Below, piece after piece: positions 15,242 through 17,890 of a stretch of 64,000 nt of DNA (within the stretch, counting starts at the first letter, position 1; each line of letters starts with the position of its first letter). A program made the translations under genes and the position numbers. Location: assembly GCA_963743815.1 (NCBI GenBank), contig CAVURB010000002.1:76014-140013 (forward strand), read 5' to 3'. This stretch comes from an uncultured Chloroflexia bacterium. GTDB taxonomy: Bacteria > Chloroflexota > Limnocylindria > Limnocylindrales > CSP1-4. The notes below the pieces were generated by a model. It did no database searches. It was given only the letters and a program-made list of their open reading frames with translations, and was not told the DNA's origin.

Positions 15242-17890
15242 CTACTCGTGCCCGCCGGGGCCGAGGGCGGCCACGGCGCCATGCCCGTCGCCATGGTCAT
15301 GCCCGTGCCCGTGGCCGTTCCCACCCCCCTGGCCGCTCCCCGCCGCGATGCCGGTGATGGACGGCGGCAGCACCGGGAGCATCCGCGAGCTGTCGATGAA
15401 CCGGCCGTCGGCGGCGGCGCGGGTCGCCCAGTCGCGCTCGCGGCGGATGTAGGTCACCTCGGTCTCGCGATCGATGGCAGCGAGCGCCATCAGGTCGATG
15501 GTCGGGTTCGCCCGACCGGTGTGGGCGAGCTCGATATCGGCGCCGTCACGCAAGGCGTCGTACGGGCATGCATCCACGCAGATGCCGCACAGGATGCAGC
15601 GGCTCTCGTCCACTTCGTACTTCTGGAGGACGCGCGGCTTGGGCATGAGGGCGCCCGTGGGGCACGTCTCGGCGCACCGTCCACACGACACGCAGGGCGT
15701 GTCGTTGAGGCTCATGTCCAGCGGCGTCGTGACGAGCGTGTCGAACCCGATGCGCATGAAGTCGTAGCACGCCGCCCCGACCACTTCGGAGCAGACCTGG
15801 GCGCAACGGCCGCAATCGATGCAGCGCGACGGCTCGCGCAGGATGAACGCGTGCAAATCGTCGCGGACGTAGTCGTGGTTGATGCCGGTGAACCGGTTCT
15901 CCGTCACGGACCGATAGCCCGCGCCCTGGTGGTACTGCGGCTCGAGGGTCCGCAGCGTCGTGCCGTACTCGATGCCGAGACGGCGCAGGTCGCAGAACCC
16001 GATCGCCTCGCACGTGCACTGGAGGCAGCGCGTGCTCTCCGCGACGGCCGCCTCGCGCGTGTACGGGAGCTCGTACTCGATGTAGCTGTGGTTCCGCTCC
16101 TCGGCCTCGAGGGCGGTCATCCGGTAGCGCGGCTCCTTGACCTCGGCGGTGAACGGCACGATGGAGAGGAACTCGGGCTGCGGCTCCGCGAGCGTCTGGC
16201 GGGTGCGGATCGCAGACAGGTCCAGGCCCTTGAGGAAGGCGTCCACGGCATAGGCCGCGCGCCGGCCTTCGGCGATCGCCTGGACGACCGTCGCGGCGCC
16301 GATCCGGACGTCGCCCGTGCCGAAGACGCCTGGCCGCCCGGTCTCGAAGGTGACCGCGTCCGCCTTGAGTCGGTGCTGCTTGGTCGCCTCGGGCCCCTCG
16401 GAGCCTGGGCCGATCCAGGTGAGGTCCGGCCCCTGGCCGATGGCCAGCAGGACCCGGTCGCACGGGATGATGAACTCGGTGCCGGGGGCGGGCTCCGGCC
16501 GACGGCGTCCGGACGCGTCCGGGGCACCCAGCTGCATCCGGATGAACTCGACCCCGGTGACGTTGCCGTTCTTGTCCACGACGACCCGGGTGGGGCCAGC
16601 CTGGAAGATCGCGGTGACGCCTTCCTCGATGGCTTCGTGGACCTCGCCGGCCGCCGGCATGTCCTTCATGTCGCGCCGGTAGACGAGCGTGACCTCGCTC
16701 GCTCCCTGGCGGACCGACGTCCGCACGCAGTCCATCGAGGTGAACCCGCCACCGATGACGACGACGCGCTTGCCGGCGTGATCGGGGTACTCGAGTCCCA
16801 GGGTGGCGGTGCGCAGGTACTCGAGACCGTCGAGGACCTCGGCGGCGTCCTCGCCCGGGATCCCGAGCTTGTTGGTGTCGTAGCAACCGATGGCGATGAC
16901 GACCGAGTCGAAGCCCTGGTTCGTCAGGTCGTCGAGGGTGAAGTCGCGACCCAGCCCGGCGTTGCAGACCATCTTGCCGCCGAGCCGCGTGACCGACTCG
17001 TACTCCGCCTCCAGGACCTCGACCTTGGGCAGGCGGTACTGCGGGATCCCGTAGCGGAGCATCCCGCCCGGCGCCGGGTCGCGCTCGAAGATCGTGACGT
17101 CGTGCCCGGCGAGGAGCAGGTAGTACGCGGCGCTCATGCCGGCCGGCCCCGAACCGATCACGGCCGCGCGGCGACCGCTCCGGACCTGCTGTTCGAACGG
17201 GACGGGCGGGTCCACGCCGTCGTCCAGCATGGACTTGAGGACCTGGTCGCCGGCATAGCGATGCGAATCGCGGATGGCGATCGCCTCGTCCACCTCGTCG
17301 CGCCGGCAATGCTCCTCGCACGGGGCCGGGCAGACGCGCCCAAGGACGGACGGGAAGGGGATCGTCCGCTTGAAGATCCGGGTGCTCTCGCGCCAGTCGG
17401 CCTCCGCGTTCGCCTTGAGGAAACCCGGGATATCGATGTGGCTGGGGCACTTGTTCTGGCAGGGCGGCAGGCAGTAGGCGTTGTGGTCGCTGAAGATCAG
17501 CTCGAGGTTCGTCCGGCGCAGCCGGCGGACCTCCTCGGTCTGGGTCTGGACCTTCATCTCGGGTTCGCAGACGCGCGAACAGGAGATCGGCGGGTGCTCC
17601 TCTCCCTCCACTTCGACGACGCACATCCGGCACGCCCCGAAGCCCGGGAGCTTGGGCTCGTAACAGAGCGTCGGGATCTCGATCCCGTTGTCGCGGCAGA
17701 CCTCGAGGATGGTCTGACCCTCGAACCCTTCGACGACGCGGCCATCCACCTCGATGCGGATCCGCGCCGTGGACTGCGGGCGCTGCGGTGACTGGGTCTC
17801 GAGGAGTCGCTCGGCCAGCGAATCCGCGTTGGTCCTTGCTGTCGTGGCGGGGACGGGGCGGCCTTCGGGACGGGCGAGGGTATCGGTCAT
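15242..17890 (-). CDS. Multidomain Fe-S flavoprotein: NuoG-like N-terminus, inserted GltD/NfnB-type FAD/NAD(P)H domain, 2x[4Fe-4S], C-terminal half of NuoI and a His-rich tail
   Basis: IPTLCY...GACRMC...ISC ([2Fe-2S]); [41 protein letters not shown]...[14 protein letters not shown] and [38 protein letters not shown] coupled to the nuoF stop (TGATG). Confidence 0.9.

Follow-up and report, generated by a model that had tools for sequence, protein, structure and literature searches.

From which donor, and through which subunits, do electrons enter a proton-pumping complex I whose operon carries a glutamate-synthase-like flavoprotein unit built into a NuoG-like protein? The question is raised by a 64,000-nucleotide stretch of DNA (hereafter the window; positions 76,014 to 140,013 of contig CAVURB010000002.1, assembly GCA_963743815.1) from an uncultured Chloroflexia bacterium of the class Limnocylindria, in which the minus-strand genes run in the order nuoA, B, C, D, H, X, F, Y, J, K, L, M, N; all window coordinates given below are on that strand. 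To judge by sequence comparison, X-F-Y is a trimmed form of the NfnC-NfnB-NfnA cassette of the Bfu-type transhydrogenases NfnABC and StnABC, and it is placed inside nuoI, with one half of NuoI carried on X and the other on Y. We think it reasonably probable that this cassette, built into what looks like the only complex I of the genome, turns it into a non-bifurcating, proton-pumping enzyme that passes electrons from reduced nicotinamide adenine dinucleotide phosphate (NADPH) to quinone, and our statements on its function are predictions throughout. An earlier note on this DNA had described the composite make-up of Y, which is confirmed here, and had interpreted it as a possible NADPH-fed complex I, an interpretation that is partly supported.

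Gene Y and its flavoprotein unit

Gene Y (15245..17890; 882 residues) is an NfnA/StnC-type subunit, composed of a NuoG N-terminus, a GltD-like unit for flavin adenine dinucleotide (FAD) and NADPH and an iron-sulfur dicluster, and fused to the C-half of NuoI. It is contained in an open reading frame (ORF) at 15242..18121, with its stop codon at 15242-15244, and the translation of that frame holds all of the Y motifs quoted in the earlier note. Its ATG, placed by that note correctly at 17890, overlaps the TGA of nuoF by one base, while the end placed at 15640 cuts the protein at residue 751 (the true end is 15245), so that 131 residues, including a third CxxCxxCxxxCP motif and the NuoI C-half, were missed. 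The G+C content of the window is about 70%, and long spurious ORFs are therefore plentiful in it.

The N-terminus of Y is a NuoG/HydA-type [2Fe-2S] domain (residues 42-118, 17537..17767; Pfam Fer2_4, E 1.9e-19), the ligands of which, C76, C87, C90 and C104, are invariant in 33 Y sequences. The following NuoG His-cluster motif, PF10588, is matched only over the first 17 of its 40 positions (residues 125-141), and positions 18-40 are matched after the flavoprotein unit in the Y of one relative; the GltD-like unit is hence literally inserted inside the His-ligated cluster motif, within H136-x3-C140 ... C622-C633. This GltD/NfnL-like unit (residues about 142-619, 16034..17467), identified from Fer4_20, Pyr_redox_2 and an alignment to 9bov_A, comprises two [4Fe-4S] sites together with GSGPAG as its FAD motif and GGGFTSMD...YRR as its NADPH motif. 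Pfam places Fer4_20, the double-cluster domain of the GltD and dihydropyrimidine dehydrogenase type, on residues 140-219 (E 1e-16) and Pyr_redox_2, the two-Rossmann flavoprotein domain, on residues 242-542 (E 2e-28). In the YRR, Y404 and R406 are invariant and R405 is kept in at least 90% of the 33 sequences. The interrupted NuoG N-terminus with its YRR, as the earlier note had described it, is thus borne out, and so is the lack of a large molybdopterin-like domain, no molybdopterin-type family having been found in Y by the Pfam search.

Downstream of the inserted unit lies a NuoG/HydA-type ferredoxin dicluster (residues 683-748, 15647..15844; Fer4_Nqo3) that aligns with the matching two motifs of NfnA and StnC. 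A further 4Fe-4S dicluster match covers residues 733-779, and the third CxxCxxCxxxCP motif occupies residues 765-776. Besides the four [2Fe-2S] ligands, the residues invariant in the 33 sequences are H136, C140, C144 and C148; C187, C191 and C195; H210; C622, C625, C627 and C633; C690, C693, C696 and C700; C733, C736, C739 and C743; and C765, C768, C771 and C775, which with those four makes 28 candidate cluster ligands without a single change down to about 42% identity. Assigned to clusters by analogy with NfnA, they would suffice for one [2Fe-2S] and five [4Fe-4S] clusters, plus half-sets for two more. The tail of Y (residues 831-882, 15245..15400) is found in the closest relatives only, and its His/Gly-rich end (15245-15330) is present in the two closest, G333 and G124, and missing from more distant Y proteins.

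A nuoI gene divided between X and Y

Gene X (19188..19862; 225 residues) joins a NuoI N-half to the N-terminal helical domain of NuoE/NfnC and has no [2Fe-2S] domain. The N-half (residues 1-85, 19608..19862; motif CETCFQCAQACP) matches positions 1-65 of the NuoI model TIGR01971, and C56, C59, C62, C66 and P67 are invariant in 33 X sequences. The C-half is at the end of Y (residues 753-830, 15401..15634), where positions 71-114 of the same model and blastp against canonical NuoI both find it as a CxxCxxCxxxCP motif plus the following ...ELA... segment. An NCBIfam search repeats both half-matches, at the start of X and, for model positions 71-113, at the end of Y. Residues 3-67 of the canonical NuoI of another Chloroflexota genome align by blastp to X residues 7-71 with 40% identity, and positions 8-78 of a profile built from the 33 X sequences match NuoI/TYKY/NDUFS8 chains (e.g., 2fug_9, residues 6-79 of 182).

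Searching the window's genome with the NuoI model yielded no match above the TIGR01971 cut-off, only the half-matches on X and Y. Similarly, an intact NuoI above the cut-off was not found in five of five class relatives (91-97% complete), all of which show just two half-matches about 4.2 kb apart. Each of these six genomes has one NuoD locus, and no second NuoD was found in the window's genome or in the five near-complete relatives. These matches place the X-F-Y cassette inside nuoI, and the cysteines of X would supply the other half of the ligands for two clusters shared with Y.

Co-folding X with Y residues 740-882 and two [4Fe-4S] clusters gave an interaction prediction score from aligned errors (ipSAE) of 0.53 (median of three runs) versus 0.00 for the best of three controls, with at least 90% contact agreement across the three runs and a partner predicted local distance difference test (pLDDT) of at least 64. 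In a calibration set, the mark for such co-folds was passed by 58 of the 80 solved complexes and by 2 of the 110 mismatched pairs; both of these mismatches, but only 7 of the solved complexes, passed it with an ipSAE of 0.60 or less. By the tool's verdict the model lends weak support to the X-Y pairing, and its pass may reflect likeness to, or memory of, solved structures, since the NuoI fold has solved relatives. In an AlphaFold2 (AF2) model of X alone, residues 36-115 fall below a pLDDT of 50, which is compatible with a half-fold lacking its partner, though no proof of one.

Kinship with NfnABC and StnABC

Ranked by E-value against Protein Data Bank chains only, the best matches of Y are 9bov_A (named Molybdopterin oxidoreductase by its depositors; 1178 residues; Y residues 44-775, E 3e-158), 8oh5_C (Formate dehydrogenase-O, major subunit, to its depositors; 1172 residues; Y residues 42-778, E 9e-139) and NfnA 9n5u_A (963 residues; best stretch Y residues 40-573, E 6e-134). 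Chains of the NfnSL type and glutamate synthase beta follow (4ylf_B, 1e-77; 5jca_L, 2e-75; 6s6s_G, 7e-65), and then dihydropyrimidine dehydrogenase (2e-35). The GltD/NfnB kinship proposed earlier therefore stands for the fold and not for the closest relatives, as the Bfu-type NfnA and StnC come ahead of the solved GltD and NfnB chains. We take 8oh5 to be Sporomusa StnABC, and the length of 1172 residues in the Stn paper agrees. Entry 9bov we identify with the Caldicellulosiruptor NfnABC of the published cryogenic electron microscopy work, whose residue numbers K170 and Y1178 fit. The layout of Y is, on these alignments, the known NfnA/StnC architecture of Bfu-type transhydrogenases, and the insertion itself is not new.

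In NfnABC, NfnA is described as holding seven clusters (A1-A7) and an FAD, with electrons running FAD-A7-A6-A3-A2-A1 to the bifurcating site B1-FMN-C1 (FMN, flavin mononucleotide), and with A2-A4-A5 as a dead-end branch in the formate dehydrogenase (Fdh)-like domain (PMC11829005). In StnC, the FAD is described as non-bifurcating, Lys K170 as a strictly conserved ligand of the FAD-proximal cluster and the FdhF-like domain as mediating the tetramer (PMC10482914). The cassette shares with these enzymes the succession of [2Fe-2S] domain, GltD-like FAD/NADPH unit at the His-cluster motif and dicluster in Y, a closest relationship of F to NfnB/HydB and of the C-part of X to NfnC, and the gene order C-B-A. 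It differs in that Y lacks the Fdh-like C-terminal domain (the alignments to the 1172- and 1178-residue chains end at about Y residue 775-778), and with it the A5 cluster and the tetramer interface; in that F lacks the N- and C-terminal iron-sulfur domains and X the [2Fe-2S] cluster; and in that X and Y are fused to the two NuoI halves and encoded inside a nuo operon. Counting residues along the alignments sets Lys170 of both solved chains opposite His210 of Y, which is present in 33 of 33 sequences; Y Lys174, considered as the counterpart of StnC Lys170, was rejected on that count.

NfnSL (NfnAB) and glutamate synthase beta share the FAD/NADPH fold and both [4Fe-4S] sites, but theirs are stand-alone subunits of about 470 residues. 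In NfnSL, moreover, bifurcation takes place at the FAD and a Glu serves as ligand of the proximal cluster according to PMC10482914, whereas Y has His. An NfnS-like gene, i.e., the partner with FAD and [2Fe-2S], was not seen in the operon by Pfam.

Loss of the bifurcation site in X and F

Beyond its NuoI half, X consists of a NuoE/NfnC-like helical domain (residues 118-190, 19293..19511), which matches positions 2-63 of the 145 in PF01257, finds its best structural match in 9bov_C and is modelled by AF2 with block-mean pLDDT values of 78-97 over about residues 121-180. Profile positions 115-230 of X match NfnC (9bov_C, E 3e-22), HydC and 8oh5_A, with NuoE chains weaker. No cysteine was found beyond residue 70 of the window's X, where the ligands of the C1 [2Fe-2S] cluster are missing, and among the 33 X sequences none is conserved outside the NuoI motif. 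Longer forms of X, with 270-285 residues, occur in families f2, f3 and part of f1 of the class (e.g., L026:9666-10511); the one aligned in full, from G046, retains traces of the thioredoxin-like domain of NuoE but not the complete [2Fe-2S] cysteine set. The domain is deleted from X in the window's lineage, and together the forms look like stages of decay.

Gene F (17893..19182; 430 residues) encodes a NuoF/BfuB flavoprotein core. Its best solved matches are HydB 8a6t_B (3e-93) and 9bov_B (2e-92), canonical NuoF chains scoring about 1e-65 to 1e-80, and on the NuoF model TIGR01959 it reaches 341 bits (E 5e-102), below the cut-off of about 559. F aligns only to residues 106-510 of the 584-residue NfnB and so lacks both the N-terminal domain and the C-terminal pair of [4Fe-4S] clusters (B3/B4) that binds ferredoxin. 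The NuoG model of NCBIfam scores 93 bits against a cut-off of 470, and of a NuoEFG input (N) module, the NuoE [2Fe-2S] cluster, the four-Cys NuoF cluster and the NuoG molybdopterin-like domain are all absent. A C-terminal C-P-x-G-x-C segment is seen in the F of most relatives (e.g., L023:8201-9580 and L033:10336-11661) and is missing in the window and in G333; perhaps it is what is left of the linker that joined the ferredoxin domain of Bfu B subunits, now lost.

The [4Fe-4S] (B1) motif of the window's F reads C-x2-S-x2-C. Among 49 cassette-type F sequences, 48 were informative (that of G009 is fragmentary, and the G301 frame was trimmed to its F part), and 30 of these lack the second Cys, all in families f1-f3: in f1 it is replaced by Ser or Thr in 13 of 14, in f2 by Thr in all 4 and in f3 by Ala in all 13 informative sequences. 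The other 18 that keep it are from G365 and all 17 of families f4, f9, f19, f24, f28 and f46, and so do two canonical NuoF sequences of this phylum that served as controls. The segment aligned with NADESEPG of NuoF reads NGYGADP in the window and several f1 sequences, NLMGADP or close variants in f3, and NAYDAD- in more distant families, and the first Asn of NNVET is variable among cassette-type F sequences; residues of both segments presumably contact FMN or NADH. For X, F and Y, the ratio of nonsynonymous to synonymous substitution rates (dN/dS) is 0.16-0.23, 0.22-0.33 and 0.13-0.16, respectively, compared with 0.07-0.15 for NuoD and 0.23-0.30 for NuoL. All three cassette genes are under purifying selection.

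The operon and its membrane-arm genes

The locus holds the eleven core genes A, B, C, D, H, I, J, K, L, M and N, with NuoI as two halves on X and Y. Upstream of the cassette are nuoA (23876..24328; PF00507), nuoB (23181..23993 as the listed ORF, the true start being probably later; PF01058), nuoC (22630..23586, again as listed and with a probably later start; PF00329), nuoD (21350..22597) and nuoH (19876..21213; PF00146, E 1e-102). Alignment to canonical NuoB and NuoD of another Chloroflexota genome reveals that the CC, C and CP cysteine motifs of NuoB are kept, as are the MGPQHPSTHG and D-x-x-x-Y segments of NuoD; we take the former to hold the NuoB cluster cysteines and the latter the His and Tyr of the quinone site. 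About 25 residues are deleted from NuoD relative to the canonical protein, so that Pfam matches it in two pieces (positions 1-172 and 199-271), while the 366-position NCBIfam model NF008974 matches end to end; the same gap of about 25 residues is found in the NuoD that accompanies X-F-Y in other genomes.

Downstream lie nuoJ (14637..15230; synteny and tblastn similarity to relatives), nuoK (14332..14634; PF00420), nuoL (12344..14332; Pfam), nuoM (10669..12337) and nuoN (9200..10669; Pfam). NuoM is in two frames owing to a one-base frameshift near 11729-11748, an apparent indel in a G/C-rich stretch, and both parts are in frame in two same-genus genomes. As the genome is 72% complete in only 19 contigs, this break may be an assembly error rather than the mark of a pseudogene. 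Directly upstream of nuoA is a PF02636 (Methyltransf_28) gene (24652-25965, minus strand), and a second one lies two genes downstream of Y in G317 (L027:14831-15916); this is presumably the family of the complex I assembly methyltransferase NDUFAF7.

Distribution among Chloroflexota genomes

Among 8000 candidates scored, the Y tail (residues 560-882) matched 1113 database proteins, and the best 120 matches are 81-93% identical and mostly 865-891 residues long. Where these carry a name, it is 'FAD-dependent oxidoreductase [Candidatus Limnocylindrales bacterium]' or the like; across the cassette genes, 'formate dehydrogenase major subunit', 'ferredoxin' and 'hypothetical protein' are also in use as labels. 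A survey of 401 Chloroflexota genomes with X found a full-length X-type match in all 45 other genomes of the class (f1, 23/23; f2, 4/4; f3, 16/16; f4, 2/2) and in at least 18 of the 355 outside it, the remaining matches, among those listed, covering only the NuoI-like start of X. Scanning a sequence collection with the X profile kept 80 loci, all close relatives, from metagenome-assembled genomes (MAGs) labelled Limnocylindria or Chloroflexota bar a few odd labels.

Within the class, the order A B C D H X F Y J K L M N is identical in two of two same-genus genomes and, as far as the fetched locus reaches (nuoM), in G046 of family f3, and G317 has the order B-D-X-F-Y. In four genomes outside the class, the cassette forms a four-gene nuoB-X-F-Y cluster, with unrelated flanking genes in the one of them that is annotated; here it is nuoB that travels with X-F-Y. 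An intact NuoI scoring above the family cut-off is present in each of the four, and two have a separate A-C-D-H cluster without B and I as well as a canonical A-N operon. Named matches outside the class are 'hypothetical protein [Ktedonobacterales bacterium]' or 'ferredoxin', from Ktedonobacterales MAGs.

Several other arrangements were seen. In G301 (L069 938-5605, minus strand), F and Y share one open frame without an intervening stop (1556 residues from stop to stop), which is genuine as far as that assembly goes, and database protein P0091 (1069 residues) has the Y domains plus a NuoJ domain (PF00499); both could be further fusions or sequencing errors. A Y-NuoJ fusion in G365 was rejected as an artefact of start-codon choice. 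Separately from the operon, PntB of the proton-translocating transhydrogenase is encoded in the window's genome (G000:C7:99332-100711) and in 46 of 47 class genomes.

Comparison with other complex I-like systems

Relative to the canonical 14-subunit complex I (NuoA-N), all genes of the quinone (Q) and proton-pumping (P) modules are here, key segments of NuoB and NuoD are kept, F is NuoF-like and the N-terminus of Y is NuoG-like. The differences are that NuoI is split, the NuoE [2Fe-2S] cluster and the NuoG molybdopterin-like domain are missing, an FAD/NADPH site is added, and the exit towards quinone would run via the second dicluster site. That site has presumably been lost in canonical NuoG.

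Membrane-bound Nuo-Bfu complexes have been predicted in Deferribacteres, Proteobacteria, Planctomycetes and Nitrospirae, and an Mbh-Bfu complex in Dehalococcoides (Schut et al. 2022, PMC9304861). These share with our locus the use, for electron input, of a BfuABC-like module encoded midway along a complex I operon. Unlike it, they have 14 subunits and a full BfuBC core and are predicted to confurcate NADH and ferredoxin; the description given of them mentions neither a GltD insertion nor a split NuoI, and the underlying survey required a ferredoxin-type domain in BfuB, which F does not have. Thermotoga mbx-like operons carry a gltD-related flavoprotein in place of NuoI (Degli Esposti 2015, PMC4758237), i.e., a GltD-type NAD(P)H flavoprotein on a complex-I-like membrane module as here, but these are described as Mrp/Mbx-type systems without NuoE, NuoF and NuoG parts, in which the flavoprotein substitutes for NuoI and is not fused to half of it. 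Within the phylum, Chloroflexi have been listed among the carriers of an 11-subunit complex I (Moparthi and Hägerhäll 2011, PMC3144371), and the Chloroflexus genome paper reports a second, loosely arranged nuo set without nuoG (PMC3150298). Literature searches, with subscription journals and the supplements of PMC9304861 outside their reach, met with no account of NuoI being split or of complex I containing an Nfn-type module, and the integration into complex I by splitting NuoI, along with the loss of the bifurcation apparatus, is what we found undescribed.

Proposed electron route and alternative readings

In the route that we favour, NADPH would reduce the FAD of Y, whose NADPH-type YRR is kept as in NfnA, and electrons would then pass through the two GltD-type clusters and the His-ligated cluster to the NuoG-type dicluster. 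They would leave via the second of the two dicluster sites, which lies on a branch that leads nowhere in the soluble NfnA and StnC; an exit at this point is suggested because only about 20 residues separate its motif (ending at 744) from the motif of the NuoI C-half (765). The two NuoI halves on X and Y would rejoin and form the two NuoI clusters beside NuoB, bolting the input module to the quinone module, so that electrons could continue through the NuoB cluster to quinone and drive the proton-pumping membrane arm. That Y belongs to a proton-pumping complex I, as the earlier note held, agrees with its place in a complex I operon, a setting from which NADPH entry via FAD could reasonably be proposed; this proposal is now stronger, since X and Y carry NuoI halves that tie both physically to the quinone module. 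Even with a feed from NADPH only, the NADH and NADPH pools could be linked, because PntB is so widely present in the class. Bifurcation, which the note had raised as a possibility, is unlikely: the [2Fe-2S] cluster of NfnC and the ferredoxin-binding domain of NfnB are both missing, B1 is short of one Cys, and the corresponding FAD is described as non-bifurcating in the NfnABC/StnABC family (PMC10482914).

Several observations weigh against this reading. The window's genome is only 72% complete, and its nuoM is frameshifted. BLAST also aligns Y residues 733-789 to both canonical NuoI motifs, so a different pairing of the four CxxCxxCxxxC motifs is possible, and the weakness of the co-folding support for the X-Y pairing counts here too. 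The AF2 model of Y has a mean pLDDT of 60.5 and drops below 50 over residues 565-882. The Lys ligand called strictly conserved in StnC (PMC10482914) is His210 in Y. In F, the second Cys of the cluster motif is lost in most of the sequences, and the NADE segment and the first Asn of NNVET differ from canonical NuoF; F may still take in NADH at its FMN, but such entry is uncertain, because the [4Fe-4S] motif has lost one Cys in the window's lineage. Finally, we infer donor specificity, FAD and FMN content and quinone reduction alike from sequence.

A rival reading, to which we give an appreciable but minor chance, is a dual-donor enzyme in which F would oxidise NADH at its FMN and Y would oxidise NADPH at its FAD, the two flows merging in Y on their way to quinone, with exchange between the two pyridine nucleotide pools as a side effect. 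F keeps its GRGGAGF loop, GEET and the QRPP segment, evolves under constraint similar to that on NuoL and retains all motif cysteines in the 17 sequences from families f4, f9, f19, f24, f28 and f46, and the [2Fe-2S] domain of Y that links F to the chain in NfnABC is invariant. Nevertheless, the motif lacks one Cys throughout nearly all of the window's own lineage (f1 to f3), where an upstream Cys that might stand in is present in just 12 of the 17 affected f1/f2 sequences and in none of the 13 from f3; uncoupled exchange between NADH and NADPH would presumably drain the NADPH pool, and a PntB is already there in nearly every class genome. If F and the GltD-like unit were instead divided between an active and an idle part, with the flavoprotein unit of Y a vestige or regulator of an ordinary NADH:quinone complex I, the NuoF-like match of F, though below its cut-off, would make sense, but the 33 sequences show no change in the FAD/NADPH motifs of the inserted unit or in any of its cluster ligands, the dN/dS of Y is the lowest of the three cassette genes, and the damaged cluster motif is in F, not in Y, so we regard this as highly improbable.

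Two further readings keep NADPH in play and change the direction or the partners of the reaction. Complex I is reversible in principle, and the enzyme might operate mainly in reverse, with the proton-motive force driving quinol electrons to NADP+ to make NADPH. Some second forms of complex I have indeed been suggested to supply NADPH by reverse electron transport (PMC4758237); against this, the complex I here is the sole one found in the class (the window's genome and the five relatives checked), and nearly all class genomes already have in PntB the usual source of NADPH driven by proton-motive force, which leaves mainly reverse operation improbable. A Nuo-Bfu-type enzyme that bifurcates or confurcates, using NADPH or NADH with ferredoxin, would fit with X, F and Y each being closest to Bfu subunits and with the membrane-bound Nuo-Bfu enzymes predicted elsewhere (PMC9304861), yet it would have to do without the C1 ligands in X, where no extra conserved Cys stands in for them, without the B3/B4 domain of F and with a B1 site short of one Cys, around an FAD of a type described as non-bifurcating; we give it very little credence. 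Returning to the non-bifurcating NADPH:quinone enzyme, a bolder and more tentative extension, which we ourselves rather doubt, is that the locus records a second, independent origin of a pyridine-nucleotide input module, in which an 11-subunit core would have taken in a trimmed NfnABC by fission of nuoI and wired it via the dead-end dicluster branch of Nfn/Stn; F would then be a redox-silent scaffold in Limnocylindria, and their sole complex I obligately NADPH-driven, with PntAB linking it to NADH.

Conclusions

In one Chloroflexota lineage of soil and freshwater, the electron-entry end of the sole respiratory complex I seems to have been remade out of a trimmed transhydrogenase module that oxidises NADPH, the module having been joined in by the division of one core subunit. 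Because the cassette genes carry generic labels, metabolic reconstructions will score NuoE, NuoG and NuoI as missing in these organisms. Complex I is thought to have been assembled from modules, and the attachment here of a different input module to the quinone module looks like a natural case, with the genetic seam, the split NuoI, still visible. If the proposed exit is true, a cluster branch called non-functional in the structure papers on Nfn and Stn, so far as these describe it, would be a productive exit here. Should NADPH be the donor, the enzyme would be a proton-pumping complex I equipped with a dedicated FAD site at which NADPH enters, and no other complex I was found in this class, which is common in metagenomes from soil and freshwater.

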